Part shown: piece after piece, positions 1 through 27,623 of the stretch | How positions within the stretch are numbered: the stretch's first letter is position 1 | Layout of the letters: the number at the start of each line of letters is the position of its first letter | Assembly: GCA_020348445.1 (NCBI GenBank) | Contig: CP070751.1 | Location: 1 to 64,000, forward strand | Direction: 5' to 3' | DNA length: 64,000 nucleotides | Source of the DNA: Thermoplasmata archaeon | Lineage (GTDB): Archaea > Thermoplasmatota > Thermoplasmata > GCA-020350865 | Notes under the pieces: model-generated | Databases searched by the model: none | What the model saw: the letters and a program-made list of their open reading frames with translations, nothing else | What the model was told of the DNA's origin: nothing | Position numbers and translations under genes: made by a program

Positions 1-3000
1 GTACTTGGTGGTATTGTCTGATGCTATGAACATGATATCGCCGCCGTCCGGTTGGGCCCTTCTCGTAAGATCAGAATCTGTGATACTGATTAAAACTGGA
101 AAATTTGTCAAGTTCGCGGTTACCTTTGAGGAATTGATGGTGATTTTCTTGCGATTGCTCCAGTCTCCATAAAGGTTGCCTGTCGGGATAAATTGCACCT
201 CATTGATGACTATCTGTTGATCTAGATTTATTGCACCAGGTGTTTTACCTACCGCATTAATCCCGAAGGGATCTGCCTTGTAATTGGGATTCTCCCAATC
301 AAAAGTTGTGTTCATATCTTTTGAAATCTTATCTCGACCTATTGTCTCATTCTCGTTAATTTCGGATGTATAAATATATTCATCATTGATCCACTGGCTC
401 TGATCCATTGCCAAGAAGTCATCAGAATTTGGATCGCTTCCCCAGGCAATGTAGTCAAATATGAAGCCCTCCCTGCTTTTTACTGACAAGGTGTCCGAGT
501 CATCGAGCATGGATTTTGCAGGGGAGTCATAGTTTATTATGGACCCATAGACATCTGTGCCTGAATTCATGCCTGTTTCTCCTAAGTGGGCAACCAAATA
601 CCCTCCAGCTGCAAGTGATCCTGCACCACTTAGGTCGAACAGGTTTCCCTCGTAATCAGACAGGTATAGATCACCAAGACTGCACGCAATGCTCGAGGGA
701 TTGTAGAGCTCCACCCATTCATAATATACTGGTTCTGATGATGTTGAACTGCTGGGAGTGTTTTCTTCGATTCCTAAATATAAGAAGGAAGGAGGATCGA
801 ATTGATTGTTGTATTCTGTCGCAACCCAATCGGCTGTGTGTGCAACAGTTGATATGCGAACTTCGTCGAGAATACCAGCAAAGTTCTGTGATCCACCGTA
901 TCTTGCACCTATAGTTACTGGATAAGAAGATATTGTGGATGATAAGGGACCTCCACCTCCAGTGTCATCTCTAACCTCGGTTCCATTATGATAATGAATT
1001 TTTATTGCACCATCATAAGTAAAACTGACGTAAACCCACACACTCTTGCCAATGGTATTAGCCCCCGTATCACCACCTGCATTAAACATCAGGTCCTTAT
1101 CGCTACCATCATCATCAAGGTATGCTCCCCATAAAGTATTGGAGTCAGTTTCATCTCTCTTGAGAATGACTCTTCCCCAATTATCAAGTGAAGCATCATC
1201 GATATTTATCCAAAATGATAGGGTGAGTTTATCATGCATTCCGTCCGTTATACCAAAATCACCTAAAATAAACCGGTCATCACCGGAACTTCCTGTAAAC
1301 TCCTGGCCATACCCGATTTGGCCAGTGATCCTTGTTGGAGTATCGCCTCTGCTTCCGTAATTAGATAATGATACCGAGTTCTCGATGCTCCCCGTCTGCT
1401 CCAGCATATGATAAACTCCAACATAACCATTGCTCCAAACTCCAAATGAATGCTCTGTTGAGATTGTTTGAGCACTGTTTCCGTAATACATCTGGATTAT
1501 CTTATCCTCAGTTGGAGAGAGCCACGGGACTTTTACCCAAGCAATAAGTTCCCCTAAACCGCTTTGGTAACTCTCTATCTCATGATCGAGCCTAGCCTGA
1601 CCTTGTACAAATATTATATCGTGTCCATCAGACCGGGCTTTGGCTACTAGATCGGAGTCCGTGATTTTTACTAGAACCGGGAAGTCGGCTACACCACCTG
1701 AAACCTTGGAGGAATTGATAGTTATGTTCTTTCGATAGCTCCATTCCGTGTTATACCAATTTTGTATAACATCTTCACTTCCAACAGAGCAGAACAATGC
1801 AGCATCTACGATATTCCTGTATGAGGTGTTGATCCAATCCCATGAACGAACCGTAAATGAAACTCGCGCCTCATCTATCAAACCATCCCAAGTATCGGCA
1901 GCATCACTTATTCTAAAATCCCTTGAAGGACTACTAATATCTTTACCATCCTTGGAACTCGCAGCTTTAAGATTATCGAGTTTCCCATCGATGTAAAATA
2001 TGGCTGGCCCGTCCCTATCCACTGTCACCACAACATGGTGCCACTGATCATCTTCTATGTTGCCTTTACTGTCCGTATATGCTCTGTTTGAGCCATCCCC
2101 ATCTCCAAAATACATCCGAAAGTCATTATTGGAGTTGTAATCAAAGAGCCAGTATCCTGCAACATTGCTTGCTGTTCCTCCTTTTTCAACAATTGTTGGA
2201 TAGTTTACAGAGACAGATGAATCCAGTTGAACCCAAGCCTCTATTGTGAAATCACTGTACCCTGCATCCAAACTCTGCGAGCAATAATTGTCTCTATATA
2301 GGTAATCATCAGTTCCATCGAAACTGAATGCACCGTCAATTCTGCCATTCACAAGATTGGTTTGGTCCATTGAGCCTTGCGATTCCAGGTGGTTCATATA
2401 GGATGAGCTGTCTAAAATCGCACCATCATAATCATTCCTTGGAATCTCATTTAAGTGCCACACACCCCGATAATCATCATCCCATACTCCCTTGGGATTT
2501 GAATTATCCCCTGCAAGCGGATTGTTGTAATACATGTAAATCGTTGTATCCACAGTTGAAGAAAGAATTGGAATGCGCACATAGGCTTTCAATTCCCCAG
2601 AGCTACCATCGTAACTGACTATCTCATGTTGTAGCCTACTACCATCTAAGCTCTTGAAATGGATATCTCGTCCATCACCCCGGGCATTACTTGATAAATC
2701 TGAATCGATGATGTGGATAAAAACAGGGAAATCTGTAAGGTCTCCAGAAACTTGTGAGGAATTGAGGGTAATTGGTTTACGATTGTTGCAATCATCAATA
2801 GAGAAGAATGCACTTGGATCAACTTGATTGTACCATTCTGTAGCAACCCACTCTAAGGAGCGATCTACATTACAAATCCTGACCTCATCAATTATTCCTC
2901 CAAAATTCTGGGATGGAGAATCCTGTGCACCTATTGTAACGGCCCAGTTTGAGTTACTTAAAGGGCCACTTACATCTGTATCCTGGGTCGCCTCGCTACC

Positions 3001-6000
3001 GTTTATATAGAATTTCTTTATTGAGCCGTCATAGGTTCCGGCAAGATGCACCCAGCAGCTCTTTGCTACATTTTGGGAACCTGTGCTGTCCGTTTTGGTA
3101 TTCCAATATATCATCTTATCAGATGCGTCGGCATTGAAACCCAACATATATTCATAACTTGAATCTGTCTCGTCCCTCTTTGAAATGATCTTGGCATAGT
3201 CTTCAAGTGATGGATCATCGATGTACGACCAGGCTGAAACTGTGAGGTTGCTTTGTGTACCGTCGCATAGGCCAAGATTTCCCAAGGAGATCATGTCATC
3301 CTCCCCATTACCTGTAAACTCCTGACCGTATCCAAACTTGCCTGTTACCTGCGTAGGAGTGAGCCATTGGGTTCCGTAATTCTTGTTTTTGACAGAATTG
3401 ATATAGGGCTCCCCTGTTTCTTTCAGGTGATAGACTCCGACAAATCCATTTGTCCATACCTCATGGGGCTGCTGTTGATTTGAGGCGCTTAGATTACCGT
3501 AATACAAGTAGATTATTGTATCATCGGTAGATGAAAGAAAAGGTATTTTTATCCAGACCACTAACCTGCCTGTGGTGCCATTGAAGAGTTCGATTTCGTG
3601 GGCCAGTTTTGTATCACCGTCTTTTCCTACGAACAGGATATCATCACCATCAGGTTGTGCGTAAGCCGCTAAATCCCATAGGGTCATGTCAAGGACCACA
3701 GGAAAATCAGATAGATCACCTGCCACCTTGCCTGCGTGTATCGTGAGTTTCTTTTTGTAATCCCAGGCTTTATCATAGGGATTTCCAGATGGATCGAACA
3801 TAACTTCGTTTATGATTATGAACTGATCCATATTAATCGCGCCCTGAGTAATAGAGCCTGCATGGATACCGAATGGATCTGCCTTGCCTGTCTCAGGCCC
3901 CTCCCAATCCAAAGGAGAGTTTGTATCTGTGGAATCTCTATCGCGCCCAAAGGATTCGCCCTCTTTAAGGGAAGATGTATCCACATACTCACCATCGGTC
4001 CAAAATCCTTCTGATACTGCATCATCGTCATCTGTGTCGGGATTCCTCCCCCAGGCTACAAAATCTACAATGGAATCAAAATTATTGTATAAGTATAGAC
4101 CATCTGTATAATCCAGATTTTTTGAAGTTAGATTTATGACCAGCTTGGGTCTTATACTTGTATCATCTGTATAATCACTTGATCGAAAATATGGATTGGG
4201 ATCATTGGCATCATCATAATCGGCTCTCAAAAGCATGCCGTAATTGGGATAGGTCCCATTTACCCAACCTTTCACCAAATCGGTAATATCCCATGAATAC
4301 CAGCCATTAACAGGAGGAACTGTTGTACTGCTTTCTTCAGTACTATCATAATCACCTCCCAAAGTAGCCCATGAATTTGTCCCGTCATATGTATTCCAAT
4401 TTGAGTCTAGTTCGGTCCAGGATTGGGTTAACCTGTGTACATAGATATTCGAGCTAAATGAATTGCCGCTACTTCGATATAACCAAAGCTTTGCATTTTC
4501 AATGTTTTCGGGGGCACTTGATAAATCAAATTGTATTATGGGCCTGTGCTCTGCACTGGAATCGTTTCGAACAGATACAATCGTCCCAGTACCAAAATTC
4601 AATGTTGCGCCGTTACTTAGCATATAATTATCTTTACCATCTGTTGCATCCGGTTGAATCACCATATCATTTACCATTCCATAGACATCAGTTGTACTGT
4701 TCGTTCCTTGCTGGTTTAGATGACACACCAAATACCCACTGGGAGGTATGGTGCCTGCACCTGTTAAATCAAATGTGAATCCATCATTATCTCTAAGAAA
4801 CCACCCTGACAAATCAATTGATGAATCTCCATAATTATAGATCTCCGCCCATTCATAACCAGGTGAAATACCGCTTGTGACTTCTTCGCTACCCACAGTT
4901 ATGAATGTAGAGGGTGAATACTGGTTGTTATATTCTGTCTTGATCCATCCCGCGGTTCGTACTCCTAATGAAACTCGCACCTCATCGAGCCAACCCTCAG
5001 GAGTTTCTGAATTATCTCCTATTTCAAAATCCTGAGCAGCAGCATCGATACCTCCAAAAGTGCCGCTAATTGGAAAATCATCATCCTGTCTTTGCTCAAT
5101 CCCGTTTTCATAGGCACATAATTCATTGTTATTTCTATCGCACACACCTACTAGATACACCCACGTTCCATTGGCATACCTGAAATTGTTTGTCTCAGAT
5201 GTGATAGTGTCTGAGACCCGAAAATACCCTTGCTGACCATCAGATCTGGCACGGATGGCATAACCTCCGGATCCGGAGCCTGAGCCACCCTTGGATACTA
5301 AATCCTGATATCCTGTGGTCTCATTTATGTTAGCCCAGCAGCTTAAAGTCATGCTATTTGTACCAAAATCAAGATGACCATCGGGTACGGAGCCGAAATC
5401 AACCTCTGCATCCAATCCATCGAATAGGTATGCATTCCCTATCTGTCCTGTTCCCCCTCGGACAATAGTTGCATCTGGTGTCGCTGAAAAATCGTACATT
5501 GATGAGTCGAGGGTATCTCCGCTGGTATCATCAAGGTGCCAAACTCCCCTGTAGTTGTTGCTCCAAACATCAGCCGCATTCTCTTGATTCTCTGCTGTGG
5601 AGTTGCCGTAATACATGTAAATTACTGTATCATGGGTTGAGGAAACCAAGGGAACCTTCACCCATGCATTCAATTCCCCTGTAGCGTTTATGTAGAGCGT
5701 GATTTCATGATCAAGTTTTGTCTCAGCGTCAGATGCAGTAAAGAGAATATCGTCCCCATCAGGTTGTGCCTTTGCTGCAAGGTCTAAATCAAATATGCTG
5801 ATAAGCACAGGAAAATCTGCAAGGTCTTCCTCCACCTTTGTATGATCGATTATGATTGCCTTGCGGTAGCTCCATATACCGTCATAAGGTCCACCTGGGG
5901 GATCTGCCATTATCTCGTTGAATACGATGGATGGTATGGAGTAAGTCACAGTAAAATAACAGTAATCAAGATAGAAATGATCTGGTCCTCCTCCATTCTC

Positions 6001-6654
6001 AAGCCCTCTGAACCTCACTTTGAAGTTGCCGGAATTGAGGTTCACAGCCGTGGGAAGGTTCAAGGTTTGAACCAATATTGTGTCTATATCTGTGTCTGCC
6101 GGTGAGCTTAATGAGTATCCTCCCAAGTCGTTCTGGGTTGCATTGACTCTCCATGTAATATCTGAAAGAGGATCAGCTGTAAGCTGCCAACCGTTGTTTG
6201 TGTAGTATCCAAAGTAATAGGTTATGTCAATAACCTTTGCAACGGAAGGGATACCCGCGTTTGGGAAAAAGACTTCGATCCAATCTGAAGATGGCTCGTT
6301 TGAATCACCACTTTGTTCATAAACGGCATCACCACTTGCATCCTCATCAAGCTCTAGATAATTCAAACCATCACCATCAGAGTTTGCAGCATCAATTGGA
6401 TAGATATGTCCTGAGATGAATTCACTTCTGGTATTTCGTTCATTTAGTAATGCATTATCAGCTCTGTTTGAACTGACCTCGCAATTACCCAACTTAAAAC
6501 CAGGTGGTACTATTTCATCCCGGTTGTCCACAGATTCTTTTGATTCTGGATTTGATATGAATATTGAGGTTAGGATAGAATTACAAATTAACATCAAGAA
6601 AATTACACCCGAAATTATGGGTTCTTTTGACATGGCTTTTTTACATTTTATCAT
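1..6654 (-). CDS. Very large secreted/cell-surface protein (>2218 aa, runs off window) with four DUF2341 modules, LamG-like domains, a lamin-tail domain and a DNRLRE domain
   Basis: Not in ORF track (no stop in window). Manual translation of sampled segments from ATG 6654 (MIKCKKAMSKEPIISGVIFLMLICNSIL, signal-like) to base 1 (RAQPDGGDIMFIASDNTTKY) stays in one frame; repeated W.YRK.I.I...V...L.DFPVL...AQPDG.DI.F modules, LDEVRIS LamG motifs, YEWAEIYN...DLSGWFLRD, RPIIQFDLS. Confidence 0.85.
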   Translation of the reverse strand, partial: MIKCKKAMSKEPIISGVIFLMLICNSILTSIFISNPESKESVDNRDEIVPPGFKLGNCEVSSNRADNALLNERNTRSEFISGHIYPIDAANSDGDGLNYLELDEDASGDAVYEQSGDSNEPSSDWIEVFFPNAGIPSVAKVIDITYYFGYYTNNGWQLTADPLSDITWRVNATQNDLGGYSLSSPADTDIDTILVQTLNLPTAVNLNSGNFKVRFRGLENGGGPDHFYLDYCYFTVTYSIPSIVFNEIMADPPGGPYDGIWSYRKAIIIDHTKVEEDLADFPVLISIFDLDLAAKAQPDGDDILFTASDAETKLDHEITLYINATGELNAWVKVPLVSSTHDTVIYMYYGNSTAENQENAADVWSNNYRGVWHLDDTSGDTLDSSMYDFSATPDATIVRGGTGQIGNAYLFDGLDAEVDFGSVPDGHLDFGTNSMTLSCWANINETTGYQDLVSKGGSGSGSGGYAIRARSDGQQGYFRVSDTITSETNNFRYANGTWVYLVGVCDRNNNELCAYENGIEQRQDDDFPISGTFGGIDAAAQDFEIGDNSETPEGWLDEVRVSLGVRTAGWIKTEYNNQYSPSTFITVGSEEVTSGISPGYEWAEIYNYGDSSIDLSGWFLRDNDGFTFDLTGAGTIPPSGYLVCHLNQQGTNSTTDVYGMVNDMVIQPDATDGKDNYMLSNGATLNFGTGTIVSVRNDSSAEHRPIIQFDLSSAPENIENAKLWLYRSSGNSFSSNIYVHRLTQSWTELDSNWNTYDGTNSWATLGGDYDSTEESSTTVPPVNGWYSWDITDLVKGWVNGTYPNYGMLLRADYDDANDPNPYFRSSDYTDDTSIRPKLVINLTSKNLDYTDGLYLYNNFDSIVDFVAWGRNPDTDDDDAVSEGFWTDGEYVDTSSLKEGESFGRDRDSTDTNSPLDWEGPETGKADPFGIHAGSITQGAINMDQFIIINEVMFDPSGNPYDKAWDYKKKLTIHAGKVAGDLSDFPVVLDMTLWDLAAYAQPDGDDILFVGKDGDTKLAHEIELFNGTTGRLVVWIKIPFLSSTDDTIIYLYYGNLSASNQQQPHEVWTNGFVGVYHLKETGEPYINSVKNKNYGTQWLTPTQVTGKFGYGQEFTGNGEDDMISLGNLGLCDGTQSNLTVSAWSYIDDPSLEDYAKIISKRDETDSSYEYMLGFNADASDKMIYWNTKTDSTGSQNVAKSCWVHLAGTYDGSIKKFYINGSEATQDTDVSGPLSNSNWAVTIGAQDSPSQNFGGIIDEVRICNVDRSLEWVATEWYNQVDPSAFFSIDDCNNRKPITLNSSQVSGDLTDFPVFIHIIDSDLSSNARGDGRDIHFKSLDGSRLQHEIVSYDGSSGELKAYVRIPILSSTVDTTIYMYYNNPLAGDNSNPKGVWDDDYRGVWHLNEIPRNDYDGAILDSSSYMNHLESQGSMDQTNLVNGRIDGAFSFDGTDDYLYRDNYCSQSLDAGYSDFTIEAWVQLDSSVSVNYPTIVEKGGTASNVAGYWLFDYNSNNDFRMYFGDGDGSNRAYTDSKGNIEDDQWHHVVVTVDRDGPAIFYIDGKLDNLKAASSKDGKDISSPSRDFRISDAADTWDGLIDEARVSFTVRSWDWINTSYRNIVDAALFCSVGSEDVIQNWYNTEWSYRKNITINSSKVSGGVADFPVLVKITDSDLVAKARSDGHDIIFVQGQARLDHEIESYQSGLGELIAWVKVPWLSPTEDKIIQMYYGNSAQTISTEHSFGVWSNGYVGVYHMLEQTGSIENSVSLSNYGSRGDTPTRITGQIGYGQEFTGSSGDDRFILGDFGITDGMHDKLTLSFWINIDDASLDNWGRVILKRDETDSNTLWGAYLDDDGSDKDLMFNAGGDTGANTIGKSVWVYVSFTYDGAIKIHYHNGTEVRDDTGGGGPLSSTISSYPVTIGARYGGSQNFAGILDEVRISTVAHTADWVATEYNNQFDPPSFLYLGIEENTPSSSTSSEPVYYEWVELYNPSSIACSLGDLYLSDYEGNLFDLSGAGSLAAGGYLVAHLGETGMNSGTDVYGSIINYDSPAKSMLDDSDTLSVKSREGFIFDYIAWGSDPNSDDFLAMDQSQWINDEYIYTSEINENETIGRDKISKDMNTTFDWENPNYKADPFGINAVGKTPGAINLDQQIVINEVQFIPTGNLYGDWSNRKKITINSSKVTANLTNFPVLISITDSDLTRRAQPDGGDIMFIASDNTTKY

Positions 6655-7016
6655 GGGATACCATCTCAATAGAGATATTATCTAGAGGCGCCATGATTTG
6701 AGAGTCAACTGAAACATTATAACGTCATTCGTTTCTGCACTCCCAGCTTTCCTTCCATTAATATTAATAATTATTATTGTACTGCACTATATATCATTGA
6801 GAGATTTCGATTAAATACTTTTGAGCAGAAAATCAGGTTTGATTACTAAATTTGAGAAAAAAGACCCAAACGTTTATCACTGCATGGCTTAATACTGCCT
6901 TCGGTATTTTGTAAAAAAGGCGACCTGAATTAAGAATATATAAATGGATTTAAGAATGAGAATGAATTTTTTCTAATATCTGAGGAAGGGGATGTAAAAT
7001 CAAATCAGTATTTAAT

Positions 7017-7868
7017 TTAGGTACCCAGTTGTATCTCTTCGAGCCATCTAAGCCTTTTTAAATGATCTGCTCTTGCAATCTCCCTTTTTTTGATGCCCTG
7101 CTCAACCAATTCCAATCTGTCTAATGCCCTTTTTAAAGCCTCGATGGTGGGATTGCTAAGATCCAGCTTTGCCATCTCAAATTGCCTTTCTAAAACTGAC
7201 ATCCCATCCTCAAAATCGCTGTAACCTTTACAAAAATCATCTATTATTATGTCGATGATTCTTGCAAACTCAACCCTCTCTCCCTCAAAAATTTGATGAG
7301 GATGGATAATCTTTGGTCTTGAGGGAAATTTCGGTTTTCCGATCCTTGGATCCATCATATTTCTACCAAGAGCATAGAAAGCCTGGTTTACGTTCCTGCC
7401 ATTTTTCGCACTTGTGAGGTAATATGGGACATTGTATCTAGACGCAAACTCCCTCAGGTCCTCCTGGGTGAATTTCGCTTTTCTCATCAAATCTCTTTTA
7501 TTTGCCAAAATAACAAATGGAATATTGCCCACAAGACTCTGCACCTTGGGAATCCAATATTCCTCCAAGCTATCCAGTGTTTCCTTTCTTGTGATGTCTG
7601 TCACCATGAAAACACCGTTTGCCCCTTTAAAGCTGGAAACATGCAGTTTAGCAAATCCTTTCTGCCCCAGTAGGTCCCATATTTGTAGCTTCAACATGAT
7701 GGATTCATTGCCAAAGGGAATATGCAGGACTTTTGCCGTGGTCTTTGAACCGATTGTGGTGATATAGATATCGTCAAATGTATCATATACGAACCTTCGA
7801 ATCAGACTTGTTTTTCCCACTGCTCCATCGCCGAGAACGCACATCTTCTTAATTATTTCTTTTTTCAT
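7017..7868 (-). CDS. Rab/Ras-like small GTPase with C-terminal helical extension (paralog 1)
   Basis: G1 GDGAVGKTS, G2 YITTIG, G3 WDLLGQ, G4 NKRD, G5 SAK; ~80-aa C-terminal domain shared with 18225 and 22783. Confidence 0.9.
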   Translation of the reverse strand: MKKEIIKKMCVLGDGAVGKTSLIRRFVYDTFDDIYITTIGSKTTAKVLHIPFGNESIMLKLQIWDLLGQKGFAKLHVSSFKGANGVFMVTDITRKETLDSLEEYWIPKVQSLVGNIPFVILANKRDLMRKAKFTQEDLREFASRYNVPYYLTSAKNGRNVNQAFYALGRNMMDPRIGKPKFPSRPKIIHPHQIFEGERVEFARIIDIIIDDFCKGYSDFEDGMSVLERQFEMAKLDLSNPTIEALKRALDRLELVEQGIKKREIARADHLKRLRWLEEIQLGT

Positions 7869-18224: not shown

Positions 18225-19097
18225 TCATTTGATGTCATTGGCCAGCTCCCTTCTTCTTTCTAGATTGGAGAAAACTGTCTTTTCATCCATGAACTCGTTC
18301 TCTGCCTCTGCAAAATATTCCACAGCCTTGAGTATCCCTTCTTTTGTGGGTTTGTTTATATCGAGTCCGGCCCTGGCTATCTCCTGACGAAGGATCACCA
18401 TGGCCATCCTGGAATCAGAAAATCCCTCGCAGAAATCAACGATTATTACATCAAGTGCGCCTATAGGGGTGGTTCGGTCAGAATTTCGGCGTATGCCTGT
18501 TGCCGTAAGGATTTCATAGACTTTTTTTACTGGATCTTCATACTTACCTTCAGCAAGAACAAGATGCCCAAGTGCTTCAAATGCCTCCTCAACATTAATT
18601 GCCTCCTTGGCACTTGTGGAATAATTTGTTTTCAATGTACCTCTGAGGATTGTATCAGCAGCGCTGTTGTACCTTTTGGCCATATCCTCCAATTCCTCGG
18701 GCTGGAACTCGAAGTCTTCTTTCAAATCCGACTTGTTGCACACGAAGATCATGGGCACCTCCTCCACGACCTTGAACAAAAGGGGAATCCAGTATCGCTC
18801 CAGACTTTTTAGGGTCTCCTTTCTTGTCAGGTCTGCTACCAGAATGGCACCGTCTACTCCCACGAACGTCCTGGTTTGAACGGCACTGTACCCTTCCCTG
18901 CCGATGAGATCCCAGATCACGAATGTGAGGTTGTGGGTCTGATCAGGTCTTTGGATCAAAAGGTTCTTTTTAGTGATCTTGCAGCCGACTGTGGAGATGT
19001 AGGAGCTTTCGAACACATCGAAGACATATCTTCGAATGAGGCTTGTCTTGCCCACTGCACTGTCCCCTAAAAGGGCTATCTTCTTTTTCACTGTCAA
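18225..19097 (-). CDS. Rab/Ras-like small GTPase with C-terminal domain (paralog 2)
   Basis: GDSAVGKTS, YISTVG, WDLIGRE, NKSD, SAK; TTG start after GGTGA. Confidence 0.9.
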   Translation of the reverse strand: MTVKKKIALLGDSAVGKTSLIRRYVFDVFESSYISTVGCKITKKNLLIQRPDQTHNLTFVIWDLIGREGYSAVQTRTFVGVDGAILVADLTRKETLKSLERYWIPLLFKVVEEVPMIFVCNKSDLKEDFEFQPEELEDMAKRYNSAADTILRGTLKTNYSTSAKEAINVEEAFEALGHLVLAEGKYEDPVKKVYEILTATGIRRNSDRTTPIGALDVIIVDFCEGFSDSRMAMVILRQEIARAGLDINKPTKEGILKAVEYFAEAENEFMDEKTVFSNLERRRELANDIK

Positions 19098-21434: not shown

Positions 21435-22412
21435 CTATCTTTTCCAGTCAGGCCACCAACCTTTTGCGAGCTCCTCAGTCTGTTCAGTGCCGAAGTCGTA
21501 TATATATACAGTCCATCCAGAAACACGTCCGCCTCCAGAGATACGTTTAGGCTTGGAAAATGCCTGTTGGGAATCATCGGGCGACCATGAGGGATAACGA
21601 CTTTCTCCGCCGGAAACAAGCTGGGCTGTGGGGTTGCTCTGTGTCAAGTCCAGAGTGTATATAGCACTTCCATCAGATCCATCAAGAGCTGGCCATAACG
21701 TAAATGCCAGTTTATCTGGAGAACGAGACCAATCTAGATCCTTAATACCTGCCTGTTCATAGTCATAGACTGTCACTGGGTCTTCTTCTGAATCAATTGT
21801 TAAGATATTGATATACGATTTACCGTCGATTGCTGTTGTCCAGTCAACAAATGCTATTTCTGTACCATCAGGGCTCCAGGCAATATCCACTAGATAATGC
21901 CCTTCATCTGCAGTATAAAGTGTATCAACTGAACCGTCGCTGAGAGAAATTGTCTGAATCAGCCTTGGGCGCTCACTACCCGTAGAAGGATCGTAGAGCT
22001 TTTGAATAAAGGCTATTTCACCACCCAAAGGTGACCATGCAATACTATATTGGATGTCTTGACACAGGAGTGTTGGTTCGCCTGCCTGCACTTCTCCTTC
22101 ATTCACAGATATTTCAATAGTGTATAGATCATGTGGAATGTTCTTGGTATATGCTATTGATGTTCCATCCGGTGCCCAGGTTGGACTGTATAGATTACCT
22201 GCTGAATCCACTTCGACCTGGTTAGTTCCGTCAGCATTCATCACCATGAGTGCATCATTTTTACCTACTTTAATAAACGCTATTGCCGGATCTGCTGGTG
22301 GTTCCTCATCAGGTGGTGGTTTTGGCGGTTTTTTTGCGGTAGCCATGGGTATGGCCATGCTCACAAGCAAGGACACTAATACTATGCCGATTAACAGCTT
22401 TCCTAGTTTCAT
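21435..22412 (-). CDS. Secreted TolB-like (PD40/WD40) beta-propeller protein
   Basis: Signal peptide, KKPPKPPP linker, repeated P.WSPDG..IAF motifs. Confidence 0.85.
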   Translation of the reverse strand: MKLGKLLIGIVLVSLLVSMAIPMATAKKPPKPPPDEEPPADPAIAFIKVGKNDALMVMNADGTNQVEVDSAGNLYSPTWAPDGTSIAYTKNIPHDLYTIEISVNEGEVQAGEPTLLCQDIQYSIAWSPLGGEIAFIQKLYDPSTGSERPRLIQTISLSDGSVDTLYTADEGHYLVDIAWSPDGTEIAFVDWTTAIDGKSYINILTIDSEEDPVTVYDYEQAGIKDLDWSRSPDKLAFTLWPALDGSDGSAIYTLDLTQSNPTAQLVSGGESRYPSWSPDDSQQAFSKPKRISGGGRVSGWTVYIYDFGTEQTEELAKGWWPDWKR

Positions 22413-22572: not shown

Positions 22573-22764
22573 TCAATATAGCTTTCCTTTCCTCGATCTT
22601 AACTCTACATTCATCTCCTTCAAATAAAATCCAGTGCGTATGCACCCTCTGATAAACGCGGATATATCGGTCCCTTGTACCTTTGCCTTCTTTTTCACTT
22701 CTTCAAGGAGTTCCGGTTCAATTCTTATGGTGAGAACTTTAGTGTACTTTCCTTCCTTTTCCAT
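22573..22764 (-). CDS. Ribbon-helix-helix DNA-binding protein
   Basis: MEKEGKYTKVLTIRIEPELL...TDISAFIRGCIRTGFYL; 18 nt after GTPase stop. Confidence 0.8.
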   Translation of the reverse strand: MEKEGKYTKVLTIRIEPELLEEVKKKAKVQGTDISAFIRGCIRTGFYLKEMNVELRSRKGKLY

Positions 22765-22782: not shown

Positions 22783-23661
22783 TCAGTCTCCAACAATGCT
22801 TTCGGCCCACTCTCTTCTTCTTTTCATATTGGCTAAAACAATATCTCGATCTTTAAACTCACTCTCTGCTTCTGCTAAATACTCAACAGCTGTTAGAATC
22901 TTCTCTTTTGTGGGATTGTTAACATCGATTTTCGCTCTTGCAAGTTCCTGGCGCAGGATTAGCATTGCTATTCTCGAATCCTTGAAATCCTTGCAGAAAT
23001 CCACCATTATAGCATCCAATGCACCAATGGGCGTTGTCTTATCCAAATTTCTCTGAATACCTGTTGCAAAGAGAGTTTCAAGGAGAATCTCAACAGTATT
23101 ATCTGGTTTATACTCACTTAGCATAAAATTCCCCAAGCTCTCAAAGGCGCATTCGACATTGTTCCCATCTTTTGCACTGGTCGCATAGCAGGATTTTAAT
23201 CCCTGAAATGTTGTTTTAAGGGATTGACCGCTGTATCTTCCCGCCAAATCCTCCATATCCTCGAATCCGAACTCGTATTTTCCTTTCAGATCGGATTTGT
23301 TACAAGTAAACACCAAGGGCACATTCTCTACTATCTTGAACAAAAAAGGAATCCAATATTTCTCAAGGTTCTCCAGGGTCTCCTTTCTCGTAAGATCCGC
23401 CACAAGGATTGCACCTTCCACACCCACAAAGGTCCTGGCATGAAGGGCGTGATATCCCTCTCTACCGATAATGTCCCAGATCATAAATTTGACATCTACA
23501 TTAGCGTTGGATCTATGAATGGAAAATTCCTTCATGGTTACCTTGCTTCCTATTGTGGAGGTATAGGAATCCTCGAACTGGTCGAAAACGAATCTTCGAA
23601 TGAGGCTGGTTTTGCCTACGGCGCTGTCGCCGAGCAGGACGATTTTCTTTTTTATTGCCAA
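22783..23661 (-). CDS. Rab/Ras-like small GTPase with C-terminal domain (paralog 3)
   Basis: GDSAVGKTS, YTSTIG, WDIIGRE, NKSD, SAK. Confidence 0.9.
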   Translation of the reverse strand: MAIKKKIVLLGDSAVGKTSLIRRFVFDQFEDSYTSTIGSKVTMKEFSIHRSNANVDVKFMIWDIIGREGYHALHARTFVGVEGAILVADLTRKETLENLEKYWIPFLFKIVENVPLVFTCNKSDLKGKYEFGFEDMEDLAGRYSGQSLKTTFQGLKSCYATSAKDGNNVECAFESLGNFMLSEYKPDNTVEILLETLFATGIQRNLDKTTPIGALDAIMVDFCKDFKDSRIAMLILRQELARAKIDVNNPTKEKILTAVEYLAEAESEFKDRDIVLANMKRRREWAESIVGD

Positions 23662-23700: not shown

Positions 23701-26514
23701 CTACAAATCCTTGAGCGCTGCTCTCACCTTCTCTTTTTTCTTTTCCAACTTCAATTCCTTGTAAATATCGATTGCCTTGTTTAGTTGTTCTTTCGCTTTA
23801 TTAGGATCTCCCTTAGCCTTCCACATCAATCCAAATTCGAAGTGGGATTCTGCCAATTCCCTTTTTATTCCAATTCCCTTAAAAATCTTTACGCTCTCTT
23901 CAAAATTCTCAATGGATTCCTTCCATTTTCCCTGGTTTGTAAATATAATTCCTAAAATTCTTCTCGAGCTTGCTAGGGTCACTTTTGAACCAATCTCTTT
24001 AGATAGTTCAAATGATCGTTTGCAGAAATCAAATGCTCTTGTCAGATCCTTTTTTCTAAGATAGGCTTCCGCTATAAACCAATAGTTGTAAGCCATCAGT
24101 ATCCGGTAGCCGATCTTTATAACTATTTTCATGCTCTTTTCGAATTGATCAAGGGCTTTGTCATATTCTCCTTTATAAAAGTGTGCAACACCAATGTTGT
24201 GTAAAATTACAGCAATCCTCTTTTGGTCACCCATCCTCTCATGTATTTCTTTGGTCCTATCATAGTATTCAAGGGCTTTGTCATACTCTTCTATTTCAAC
24301 ATGAACAATACCAATGTTCATCATGTGAATGGCAGTAAATTGCATATCACCGATTTGCTCCGAAATGCCTAGACTTTTTTTGTAGTATTCGAGAGCTTCA
24401 TTATATTTTCCAATCCACATATGAATTATGCCGATATTGTTGAGGGACCCTGCGATTCCTTTTTTATCTTCTATTATTTCCCTTATCTTAAGGCTCTTAT
24501 CGTAATATCCAAGCGCCATTTCTATTTCTCCTCTTTCTTGGTGCACAGTGCCAATTAGATTTAGGGCATCCGCTTTTTCCCTGCATTCCTCATCTCTAAC
24601 CAAGAATAGTGCTTCATTACAAATTTTTATTGATTCATTATATCCTCCCATATGCCTATGACAGTTCCCAATCCCAATCTTAATCTCAGCTTTTTTCTTA
24701 TTATCAATGCTCAATTCCAATGCACGCTCGTAAGCCTTGATACTATTCTGATAATCCCCAATCAAGGAATAAATACCTGCCATTTCTTCGAGTGTTTTCC
24801 TCCTCTTTTTCGGATTATCCTCAAGTCCAAGAGCATAGGAATAGAATCTTATTGATTCTTCATTTGAATAATCCTTCTTTGCCTTCTCCGCCGCTTTAAG
24901 GAGATAGTGAAGTGCTTTGTCCTTATTCTTGCATTGATAATAATGAAATGCTAAATCTTCAACCACTTCATCCAGATTATCTTGGCTCAGTGTCTCAACC
25001 GAGTTTGCGATTATCGAGTGATAATCCCTTCTCAATTCTTCTGGTATTTCGCTGTAAAGCACCTCTTTTACTTTGGCATGGTCGAACTTGAAATATCCAT
25101 TATGGGATTTGAGTAATCTATGAACTTGCTCTAAACTTCTCAACTGCTCTAAAAGTTGAGTTCTGTTCGTATCCAGGGCATAGGTTAGGATCGATGATGT
25201 GAACGTTTCTCCGATGATAGAAGCATAATCCAATACCTTCCTGTCTTCTTTTTCCAATCTGTTCAATCTTCTTTCAATCACGTTGTATATTTTGGATGGG
25301 ATTTCGATATCTTTTAGATCTTTGGCTAACTTCCATGTTCCCTCATCTTCCAAAATGATCTTTTCATCGACTAGGAATTTTATTAAAAGGATAAAGAACA
25401 ATGGATTCCCTTCGGTCTCCTTGTAGATTCGATTCTTAAATTCATCAGTGAAATCGATTTTTCCAAGCAGGACAGACAAAAATTCGTCCATAATCTCTTC
25501 GGGTAATCTCGCAAGCTCCATCTTTTTCAACAGATCCTCGCGGTCCATCAACTGCATGGTTCCCACAAGAGGATGACTCTTTTCATCCATTGAAGCAACA
25601 TCCTCAGGTCTATAAGTGCCCATAATAAATAGCCCAGTCTCTCTCGTGTTTCTAGCGAGGTAGTGCATTAGAGCTAAGGATGATAGGTCTGTCCATTGTA
25701 AGTCTTCTATGCATAAAAGAGTGGGCATTTGCTGTGCCTGCCTTATCAATCCCAAAGAGACATTCTCGAATAATAAATTCCTTCTAATCTTTGGATCATC
25801 TTTACCATAATAGATACCGTCATACTTTCCGGATGTGATAAGAGGTTTGAGGAGCTCGTCGATTCCAGCAACCTTTTTTTCGTCACCACCCCATTTCTCA
25901 AGGATTCGTTTAAAAGTTTTTGTTATCTTTAATAGGATCTCTCTCATATCGTTTAGCAGGAATTCATTTTCTCTTCCTGTTAGTATAACCACAAGATTGG
26001 TATCCTTATAATTATCGATTAATATACGATAATTCTGGTATCCTAACGAATTCAAAGTTCCTTTTTCTTCCTCTCCAGACAGCTTTGAAAGAGATTCATT
26101 AAGAAAGTCAGTTATAGTGGTAAACATTGATGCAAAAACATCAGGATTAAGTTCTGTTTCTTCTCTCACAAGATTTCTTATTAATATGCCCGCATTGGTT
26201 ACCAGATAAACAGCTTCCACTCGTGGGGCTTCCTCTGCAAAAAGCGATTCCAGGCCTACAGATCTCAGGGCTTCCATAATGGGCATGAAGGGAGTAAGGG
26301 ATTCATACATGCAGTTACCTGACAAGATCTGGAAGCCTTTGGATTGAGCAATCTCTTTCAGCTCGTTTACCAAACGGGTCTTTCCGATTCCTGCCTCCCC
26401 TGAGATGAATATTGTCCTTCCTTGCCCTTCCATGGCTCTTTCTAGATAAGACTGCAGTTCTCTGAGTTCATCCTCGCGACCAACCATCTTGGGTTGGAGA
26501 TCTAGATTCTGCAT
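23701..26514 (-). CDS. STAND/AAA_16-type ATPase with inserted longin/roadblock-like domain and C-terminal TPRs
   Basis: MVGREDE, Walker A GEAGIGKT, Walker B LLCIEDLQW, GNPLF, TPR array (IAGSLNNIG...); start MQNLDL at 26514. Confidence 0.85.
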   Translation of the reverse strand: MQNLDLQPKMVGREDELRELQSYLERAMEGQGRTIFISGEAGIGKTRLVNELKEIAQSKGFQILSGNCMYESLTPFMPIMEALRSVGLESLFAEEAPRVEAVYLVTNAGILIRNLVREETELNPDVFASMFTTITDFLNESLSKLSGEEEKGTLNSLGYQNYRILIDNYKDTNLVVILTGRENEFLLNDMREILLKITKTFKRILEKWGGDEKKVAGIDELLKPLITSGKYDGIYYGKDDPKIRRNLLFENVSLGLIRQAQQMPTLLCIEDLQWTDLSSLALMHYLARNTRETGLFIMGTYRPEDVASMDEKSHPLVGTMQLMDREDLLKKMELARLPEEIMDEFLSVLLGKIDFTDEFKNRIYKETEGNPLFFILLIKFLVDEKIILEDEGTWKLAKDLKDIEIPSKIYNVIERRLNRLEKEDRKVLDYASIIGETFTSSILTYALDTNRTQLLEQLRSLEQVHRLLKSHNGYFKFDHAKVKEVLYSEIPEELRRDYHSIIANSVETLSQDNLDEVVEDLAFHYYQCKNKDKALHYLLKAAEKAKKDYSNEESIRFYSYALGLEDNPKKRRKTLEEMAGIYSLIGDYQNSIKAYERALELSIDNKKKAEIKIGIGNCHRHMGGYNESIKICNEALFLVRDEECREKADALNLIGTVHQERGEIEMALGYYDKSLKIREIIEDKKGIAGSLNNIGIIHMWIGKYNEALEYYKKSLGISEQIGDMQFTAIHMMNIGIVHVEIEEYDKALEYYDRTKEIHERMGDQKRIAVILHNIGVAHFYKGEYDKALDQFEKSMKIVIKIGYRILMAYNYWFIAEAYLRKKDLTRAFDFCKRSFELSKEIGSKVTLASSRRILGIIFTNQGKWKESIENFEESVKIFKGIGIKRELAESHFEFGLMWKAKGDPNKAKEQLNKAIDIYKELKLEKKKEKVRAALKDL

Positions 26515-26656
26515 CTTCCCCCCACAATGATTTATTATCCCCGGGCTATTTATATACAAAACGTTTTTAAAATATATAAGGTTATATGTAAATTTGTGAG
26601 ATTTTAAAAAATATGAGAGGAATTTAGCAATGTTTCTAAAATATTGCATTTTTATA

Positions 26657-26812: not shown

Positions 26813-27292
26813 TTAACTTTTAGCAATTCTTTCCATAATAGTTTTATAGAGAACCACTGTCATTCTAAAGTCACTCTCAGCAAGCTTGGCAATTACCTCC
26901 TTGGCCTTCTTTTTATCGATTTTTTTCATCTCGACCGCAGCTACAATCAAACCCAAAAGCCCGGTATAATCTCTATTCTCAACATCCGCAACCCTTCTTG
27001 CATTTAGCTCGTCTATAATCAGCCTCGCCTTTTTTTCAGTGAAAAATAAAGTCGCCTCGCCTTCGCCTAAACCATATTTTGTAAACTGTTTCACATTCCC
27101 CTTCACTCTAACTGATATTATCCAATCTCCCATTGCTTGCATGATCTTGTCAGTTTCTGGATAGTTATGGCCAAGAAGCTCTTTCTCGATGGATTTTGTA
27201 ATATATATTTTACCCAACAATTTTTTTAAAAGGTCAAGCTCTCCAATCCTGGATAACGCGATTATGGTGGATGAGTCCACAAAAGTTCTCAT
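26813..27292 (-). CDS. PIN-domain toxin (DUF3368/VapC-like)
   Basis: FVDSSTII, LGEGEA, LIIDE..AR, TGLLG. Confidence 0.88.
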   Translation of the reverse strand: MRTFVDSSTIIALSRIGELDLLKKLLGKIYITKSIEKELLGHNYPETDKIMQAMGDWIISVRVKGNVKQFTKYGLGEGEATLFFTEKKARLIIDELNARRVADVENRDYTGLLGLIVAAVEMKKIDKKKAKEVIAKLAESDFRMTVVLYKTIMERIAKS

Positions 27293-27300
27293 ACTGACAC

Positions 27301-27615
27301 TCAGCTTTTGAGCCATTTCTTGGCTTTCCTTGTGTCCTTCTCAAGTTCGCTTTCCGAGTATTTGAAGAATGGTATCTCTCTTTTCCCCAGATAGTCAGCC
27401 ATTTCTTGGATGCTTACATCCGCAAACTCCGCTGCCCTACATAATGTAAATTCATTGCTCAGGTATTTCTTTTGAGCGATTTCCAGTTTTAAAACCTTAA
27501 TACCTTCATGAAGTGCATTTCTTGCCACTTCTGATTTGGTCATATGGAGAATCTCGATTAACTCCTCCATTTCCGATATTTCATCATCGGGTAATCGTAT
27601 CTGCAAGTTTTCCAT
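27301..27615 (-). CDS. UPF0175-family antitoxin
   Basis: N-terminal RHH-like LQIRL, SEVAR; C-terminal TLCRAAEFADVS. Confidence 0.85.
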   Translation of the reverse strand: MENLQIRLPDDEISEMEELIEILHMTKSEVARNALHEGIKVLKLEIAQKKYLSNEFTLCRAAEFADVSIQEMADYLGKREIPFFKYSESELEKDTRKAKKWLKS

Positions 27616-27623
27616 ATTCAACC

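Follow-up and report, generated by a model that had tools for sequence, protein, structure and literature searches.

STAND ATPases of the AAA_16/TPR type, such as the MalT-like proteins, Pyrococcus PH0952, AfsR and the LuxR-type large ATP-binding regulators, share a layout of Walker A motif, Walker B motif, helical arm and TPR array. The same layout is found in a STAND ATPase gene (23701..26514, minus strand) of a Thermoplasmata archaeon, located in the window, i.e., the whole stretch of 64,000 nucleotides analysed here (positions 1 to 64,000 of the forward strand of contig CP070751.1, GenBank assembly GCA_020348445.1). The AAA_16 NTPase of this protein bears an additional, inserted domain; to our knowledge, helix 2 and the Walker B strand are not separated by a folded domain in any described AAA_16/TPR STAND. 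The explanation favoured here, with a probability of roughly 0.55 for the whole of it (fold, insertion, family and platform function), is that the insert is a longin-type domain of a large archaeal family and would provide a docking platform for small GTPases built into the STAND core.

Longin domains act as platforms, as guanine nucleotide exchange factor cores or as GTPase-activating protein cores for small GTPases. Longin/roadblock GTPase platforms have a central part in the membrane traffic and nutrient signalling of eukaryotes, and bacteria use such docking folds too; in archaea, these platforms have been discussed mainly for the Asgard lineages. The longin fold is a five-stranded antiparallel β-meander flanked by a single helix on one face and by two helices on the opposite face, and the roadblock is a circular permutation of the longin (Levine et al., 2013; PMC3747258). 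In its predicted structure, the insert has the same β-β-α-β-β-β-α-α order as the longin domains of VAMP7, Sec22, Ykt6, the AP sigma/mu N-terminus, Mon1-Ccz1, CPLANE, TRAPP Bet5/Trs23 and SRX, and has in common with them the five-stranded meander between one and two helices (Z 10–12.9 over 119–134 residues). Unlike these known longins, it has no significant sequence match and is found in non-Asgard archaea (the nearest homologues are labelled Thermoplasmata); members of its family are located in a P-loop core or directly past a transmembrane (TM) helix, and it has a W-x-G-D motif of its own after α2. With the Roadblock/LC7/MglB proteins (MglB, LAMTOR/Ragulator, the Rag C-terminal domains, CvnB/MfpD of conservons and the Asgard Roadblocks) the insert would share its superfamily and a genomic association with Ras-like GTPases, but it is circularly permuted relative to them, with no N-terminal helix and with C-terminal helices in its place.

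The GTPases that neighbour the domain can be set beside the archaeal Rup (Group 2) GTPases: they are likewise archaeal, Ras-like and outside the MglA family, and the G3 glutamine is missing as in some Rup. A 2014 survey reported no conserved neighbour for archaeal Rup GTPases (Wuichet and Sogaard-Andersen, 2014; PMC4316618), whereas a candidate partner family for archaeal Ras-like GTPases is named here. In the open literature that was searched, there is no paper joining a STAND NTPase with a roadblock or longin domain, nor any that describes a system of this kind for this group of archaea. The fold and the logic are known; the family is undescribed, and the insertion architecture is unusual.

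The insertion in the NTPase core and its predicted fold

The open reading frame of the STAND ATPase is 23701..26649, and all features of the gene given below are on the minus strand. The public-database copy (P0002) starts at M46 (window position 26514) and has 937 aa; an upstream in-frame ATG at 26649 is an alternative start giving 982 aa, and residues are numbered here from this upstream ATG. The AAA_16 match in Pfam has E 1.9e-24 and 87.5 bits (cut-off 32.6), and both Walker motifs are present, the Walker A motif or P-loop GEAGIGKT at 26377..26400 (residues 84–91) and the Walker B strand LLCIEDLQW at 25693..25719 (residues 311–319). The inserted domain of ~130 residues is placed between them at 25834..26223 (residues about 143–272). 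A preliminary description of this DNA had put a domain at 25823–26236, corresponding to residues 139–276, inside the NTPase core. An insertion at these coordinates is borne out, and the peptides quoted there are all present in the minus-strand frame of the open reading frame (GEAGIGKT at residue 84, VEAVYLV at 144, EKWGGD at 251 and LLCIEDLQW at 311).

The AAA_16 match extends over STAND residues 55–341, yet corresponds to profile positions 2–165 of 167, leaving ~120 residues extra. On both flanks, the STAND aligns well with two paralogues from the same genome that lack the insert (C1:4223841-4226294 and 4226322-4228865). The flanks in question are a helix ending in EP(Y/F)(L/M)PF(I/M)(E/D)A before the site and a helix plus the Walker B strand after it; at the insertion site itself, these paralogues carry just a short, unconserved linker. 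Because the AAA_16 profile is spanned with extra residues and the insert-less paralogues align on the flanks, this is a true domain insertion: a domain of ~130 residues with longin topology interrupts an AAA_16-TPR STAND ATPase in the variable linker that joins helix 2 to the Walker B strand. The domain is followed by the linker SGKYDG...DP (25792..25833, residues 273–286), which, by context and alignment, is conserved specifically in STANDs and is not found in non-STAND copies of the domain. This linker probably serves to dock the insert onto the core of the NTPase.

The structure of the insert was predicted by AlphaFold2 (AF2) with a 135-sequence alignment, which gave a model with pLDDT 89.8, pTM 0.83 and the order ββαβββαα. 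In the numbering of the 157-aa query, the strands are at 10–18, 23–28, 68–71, 74–81 and 84–91, and the helices at 36–58 and 96–112, followed by short helices at 114–139. The β-β-α-β-β-β-α pattern that had been read from the letters alone is reproduced by this model, i.e., β1 β2 α1 β3 β4 β5 α2 plus short C-terminal helices. The top matches in a Foldseek search of the PDB are MglB, Asgard Roadblock3, LAMTOR, dynein LC7, AP sigma, Mon1-Ccz1 and TRAPP (E ~1e-4, probability 1.0). When 48,161 chains were searched exhaustively with VIA-align, the top 50 were exclusively longin or roadblock proteins. The best match is the VAMP7 longin (4afi_B; Z 12.9, 122 residues aligned, rmsd 3.3), and CPLANE (Z 12.1), Sec22 (3egd_C; Z 11.6) and AP sigma/mu (Z 10.5–11.1) are further longins, aligned over a model range of about 10–148. 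The roadblocks have Z 10–11 (Asgard Roadblock3 11.1, MglB 10.2–10.4) and align to model residues 8–119 only.

The model thus has the longin order β1-β2-α1-β3-β4-β5-α2-α3 and superposes as a whole domain on solved longins. As the insert starts at β1 and ends with two helices, it represents the longin permutation rather than the roadblock. The roadblock topology, which has an N-terminal helix (α1-β1-β2-α2-β3-β4-β5), is not seen in the family: standalone members start at β1, and copies in membrane-protein tails start right after the TM helix. A longin-type domain of the longin/roadblock superfamily is therefore strongly supported at the level of the model, and the longin/roadblock-like fold first proposed is upheld by the AF2 model, Foldseek, the VIA top 50 and a profile–profile alignment (see below) and sharpened to the longin type. 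Fold and insertion, taken alone, are close to certain.

Relations at the sequence level are more distant, and the similarity of the insert to Roadblock is only marginal. The domain-family profile was aligned by hhalign with a profile of the genome's own Robl_LC7 proteins (6 sequences only), giving 78% probability and E 1.8e-5 with 105 columns in register. Among 16 family members searched in Pfam, two weakly match Robl_LC7 (E 0.0044) and one matches Fuz_longin_1 (E 0.0037), in each case below cut-off, and the window insert itself does not reach the gathering score of Roadblock/LC7/MglB PF03259. A genome-wide PF03259 scan detects six true Robl_LC7 genes, all at separate loci and none of them identical with the insert. 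Membership in curated longin families (e.g., PF13774 and PF19036) is not found by sequence, and neither NCBIfam nor PADLOC includes a family that covers the domain. In PDB sequence searches, the insert and the domain profile alike return chance or engineered-protein matches only. Some homologues of the insert are named 'Roadblock/LC7/MglB' by the JGI pipeline, and its nearest relatives in the ESM Atlas are unnamed archaeal clusters of 143–159 aa without a common Pfam family.

The variable helical stretch that AAA_16 proteins have at this position, together with the lack of any Pfam match to the isolated insert at E<10, might suggest that the segment is an ordinary part of AAA_16, or else a small-molecule sensor of the PAS, GAF or profilin type, and not a longin/roadblock domain. 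This idea is largely refuted by the confident autonomous fold in the AF2 model, by the occurrence of the domain outside ATPases and by the top 50 structural matches, which contain no PAS or GAF protein, and it is now highly improbable.

Distribution of the domain family

A whole-genome search with the insert reveals 21 copies of the domain in 19 genes of the window's genome. Four of these genes encode STAND ATPases and two encode small proteins of 180 and 193 aa. In giant surface proteins (up to 5179 aa), the domain is located at the C-terminal end and starts 5–10 residues past a TM helix that is followed by Lys/Arg, and so forms a membrane-proximal cytoplasmic tail. Giant surface proteins with this arrangement (1643–5179 aa) are encoded at C1:3137501-3153037 (minus strand), 3153184-3160317 (minus), 3706525-3717363 (plus), 4118114-4123042 (plus) and 2657444-2669203 (minus). 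Four of the five genes directly adjoin one to six Ras-like GTPase genes; for that at 3153184-3160317, the nearest Ras-like GTPase gene is about 16 kb off. Some of the tails have zinc-ribbon-like CPxCG repeats after the longin-type domain. In addition, a coiled-coil-rich protein of 2181 aa (C1:554293-560835, minus strand) has three tandem copies of the domain, each in a repeat unit of ~500 aa, and has orthologues in the related genomes G003, G004 and P0136.

The domain is also widespread outside this genome. Among 1.84 billion representative proteins, 943 clusters match the insert; most of them are STANDs of ~1000 aa with the domain at residues 90–245, and other forms are multi-copy proteins and standalone proteins of 140–156 aa. 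In the class, it is found in 32 of 41 genomes. These searches assign the insert to a large, unnamed archaeal domain family, which is mobile across STANDs, membrane tails and standalone proteins. In a tree of the domain, all STAND copies fall together on one side of a split with support 0.87, opposite 51 non-STAND copies; 12 sequences that seem to break this pattern are probably STAND fragments truncated at the N-terminus. As the STAND inserts thus lie on one branch, the domain probably entered a STAND in a single event, which then gave rise to a subfamily.

In all contexts, the conserved features are helix α1 (residues 170–187), R162 and the W253-x-G255 motif, whereas P142, an ENEFL...D motif in α2 and the linker SGKYDG...DP are conserved in STANDs only. 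These two patterns bear on the idea of regulation in cis, with the insert as an autoinhibitory plug or a nucleotide-state sensor for the ATPase of its own STAND; this would be in line with an old view of Roadblock/LC7 proteins as general regulators of NTPases. Consistent with cis-regulation, the insert interrupts the P-loop domain between its two Walker motifs, and the STAND-specific conserved linkers (P142 and SGKYDG...DP) suggest rigid docking on the core. The conserved surface (α1, R162 and W253), however, is common to tail and standalone copies which have no NTPase domain, and this argues for a common external partner. Regulation in cis is considered quite unlikely.

Association with Ras-like GTPases

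Presence of the domain (E<=1e-5) and presence of Ras-like GTPases (PF00071, E<=1e-22) were compared across the 41 genomes of the class. The two profiles are identical: 32 genomes have both and nine have neither; counted by taxonomic family, 14 have both and five have neither. The nine genomes without domain and GTPase are 97–100% complete and belong to these five families. Copy numbers also rise together, from one domain and one GTPase up to 21–24 domains and 29–34 GTPases.

Adjacency of the genes points in the same direction. In the window's own genome, seven of the 19 domain genes have a GTPase gene within 3 kb, compared with 1.1 on average, and never more than 5, under random placement (2000 trials). 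By cross-reading of coordinate lists, adjacent pairs of a non-STAND domain gene and a GTPase gene are found in at least seven families, counts which are not independent because related genomes share history (examples are G007:C100, G032:C27, G015:C43, G040:C183, G020:C49, G012:C2, G019:C22, G024:C33 and G035:C29). In G011 and G023, the sole domain gene directly adjoins the sole Ras-like GTPase gene. For the STAND-inserted form, a GTPase gene is a neighbour at the window locus and at two of the three paralogous loci of this genome. At the window locus, the adjacent GTPase noted in the preliminary description is real: its gene starts 39 nt downstream of the STAND stop codon on the same strand, and its G3 motif, WDIIGRE, has Arg where Ras has the catalytic Gln.

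Since the domain family is present in exactly the GTPase-encoding genomes of the class and recurs next to GTPases, a function as a docking platform is inferred. In longin/roadblock dimers, GTPases are bound by the face that has the single helix (PMC3747258). By analogy with MglB, Ragulator, TRAPP, Mon1-Ccz1 and SRX, the insert would dock Ras-like small GTPases via the conserved single-helix (α1) face. Binding of a ligand to the TPR array and ATP-driven oligomerisation of the STAND would bring the inserted platforms together; such a meeting of platforms in the oligomer is proposed because longin/roadblock domains normally work as dimers. The paired or clustered platforms would then recruit or regulate a GTPase. 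The partner at this locus would be the GTPase encoded 39 nt downstream, which, without the catalytic Gln, may need a partner for hydrolysis. In this manner, the STAND switch would be coupled to the GTPase switch. For the GTPase-platform function on its own, the odds are about even.

Several observations weigh against the docking of GTPases by the inserted form, or limit the support for it. When three homologues were looked up by protein, only the P0079 STAND (GenBank CP070767.1), which is a distant homologue, has a GTPase gene, 80 nt upstream; the insert-bearing STANDs of P0031 and P0150 have none nearby. Of 24 insert-bearing STANDs in 20 regions of eight other genomes, none has a GTPase neighbour, in agreement with the full PF00071 lists of four of the eight genomes, and no other conserved neighbour is seen at 23 loci of insert-bearing STANDs. 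Only a few independent gains or losses may underlie the perfect phyletic match, as related genomes have a common past, and the five families without domain and GTPase could be one clade. A single-sequence AF2 prediction of the NTPase with the insert has pLDDT 39.8 and gives no usable geometry of the insert on the core. In addition to the missing Pfam match and the marginal similarity to Roadblock described above, two rounds of search with a hidden Markov model of the family did not reach the genome's own Robl_LC7 (PF03259) proteins.

The GTPase neighbour of the STAND-inserted form is thus lineage-specific, and the expectation of a GTPase gene beside the insert is not borne out in most insert-bearing STANDs. 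The coupling of the STAND to its adjacent GTPase, as first suggested, is supported indirectly at the level of the domain family, by the identical phyletic profiles and the recurrent adjacency, but not at the level of most insert-bearing STANDs. In that first suggestion, the nucleotide state could expose or hide the insert.

These neighbourhoods would also fit a module for homotypic or heterotypic dimerisation without GTPase binding, in which the insert pairs with that of another STAND protomer or with the tail of a giant membrane protein, and so helps STAND oligomerisation or tethers the STAND to a membrane receptor. Longin/roadblock domains characteristically dimerise via β3 and α1 (PMC3747258), so that the conserved α1 face doubles as a dimer interface; many surface proteins of this genome bear the same domain right past a TM helix, and most insert-bearing STANDs are without a GTPase neighbour. 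Dimerisation by itself leaves the identical phyletic profile with Ras-like GTPases and the recurrent adjacency unexplained, and it need not compete with the platform model, since dimers are the platforms. As the sole function of the insert, it is considered unlikely.

Extended to the whole lineage, the docking-platform model would describe a longin/Ras-like GTPase signalling network with receptors that carry a juxtamembrane platform, STANDs that carry a platform in the P-loop core, and Gln-less GTPase paralogues as partners. This extension is tentative and somewhat less probable than the platform function itself. If true, the network would be a prokaryotic counterpart of the eukaryotic longin/roadblock GTPase platforms, and the STAND described here would be the first STAND switch wired directly to a small-GTPase switch. 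A large family of longin topology in a different archaeal class, matching Ras-like GTPases genome by genome, offers a concrete candidate partner for these GTPases. The location of the domain in the P-loop core of a STAND is an unusual architecture, suggesting a testable coupling of an ATP-driven oligomerisation switch to a GTP switch, and the small size of the proteins makes direct assays of binding and GTPase activity feasible.

Other parts of the STAND and neighbouring genes

In its C-terminal region the STAND has a TPR sensor array (23770..24852, about residues 600–960), in which Pfam detects TPR_12, TPR_1, TPR_2 and TPR_MalT; TPR_12 matches in six stretches with E 1.1e-59. The helical arm and the TPR region are similar to the PH0952 STAND sensor (6mfv), the only informative match in a PDB search with the full-length STAND profile, as the list is swamped by TPR proteins; the NTPase region gives no match in the PDB search. 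PADLOC gives only generic TPR models and a marginal match to SngB (E 8e-4) for the STAND, with no defence system, and no match for the GTPase, the ribbon-helix-helix-like (RHH-like) gene and the propeller gene described below. The STAND thus matches none of the STANDs known from anti-phage defence in PADLOC (Avs and others).

The gene downstream of the STAND (22783..23661, minus strand) encodes a Ras/Roc-like small GTPase of 292 aa (Pfam Ras E 1.4e-29, Roc E 1.8e-25). This protein has a C-terminal extension of ~110 aa for which Pfam has no family, and the idea of a Rag-like roadblock in this extension likewise found no family match. The genome encodes 34 Ras-like GTPase paralogues, 18 of which are of the long form with the ~110-aa extension. 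Two more long-form GTPases are encoded in the window at 18225–19097 and 7017–7868 (both minus strand), with 62% and 40% identity, respectively, to the STAND-adjacent one. Three further insert-bearing STAND paralogues and several GTPases are located at C1:5072000-5090000 and 5143146-5145992, close to the far end of the single 5.16-Mb contig; on a circular chromosome, they would be within about 90 kb of the window's copy.

A small RHH-like gene of 63 aa (22573..22764, minus strand) lies 18 nt downstream of the GTPase gene. Its NCBIfam matches are weak and belong to RHH-type families (the MobA N-terminus and aCcr1; E 5e-5 to 5e-4), below cut-offs. Downstream of the STAND–GTPase–RHH run, the gene at 21435–22412 (minus strand) encodes a PD40/TolB-like β-propeller with an N-terminal signal-like hydrophobic stretch; it is not conserved as a neighbour in other genomes. 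Immediately upstream of the STAND, a pair of PIN-like (DUF3368) and UPF0175 genes (26813–27621, minus strand) looks like a type II toxin-antitoxin system. At the edge of the window, a very long open frame of more than 2223 aa (1–6669, minus strand) runs off the window start.

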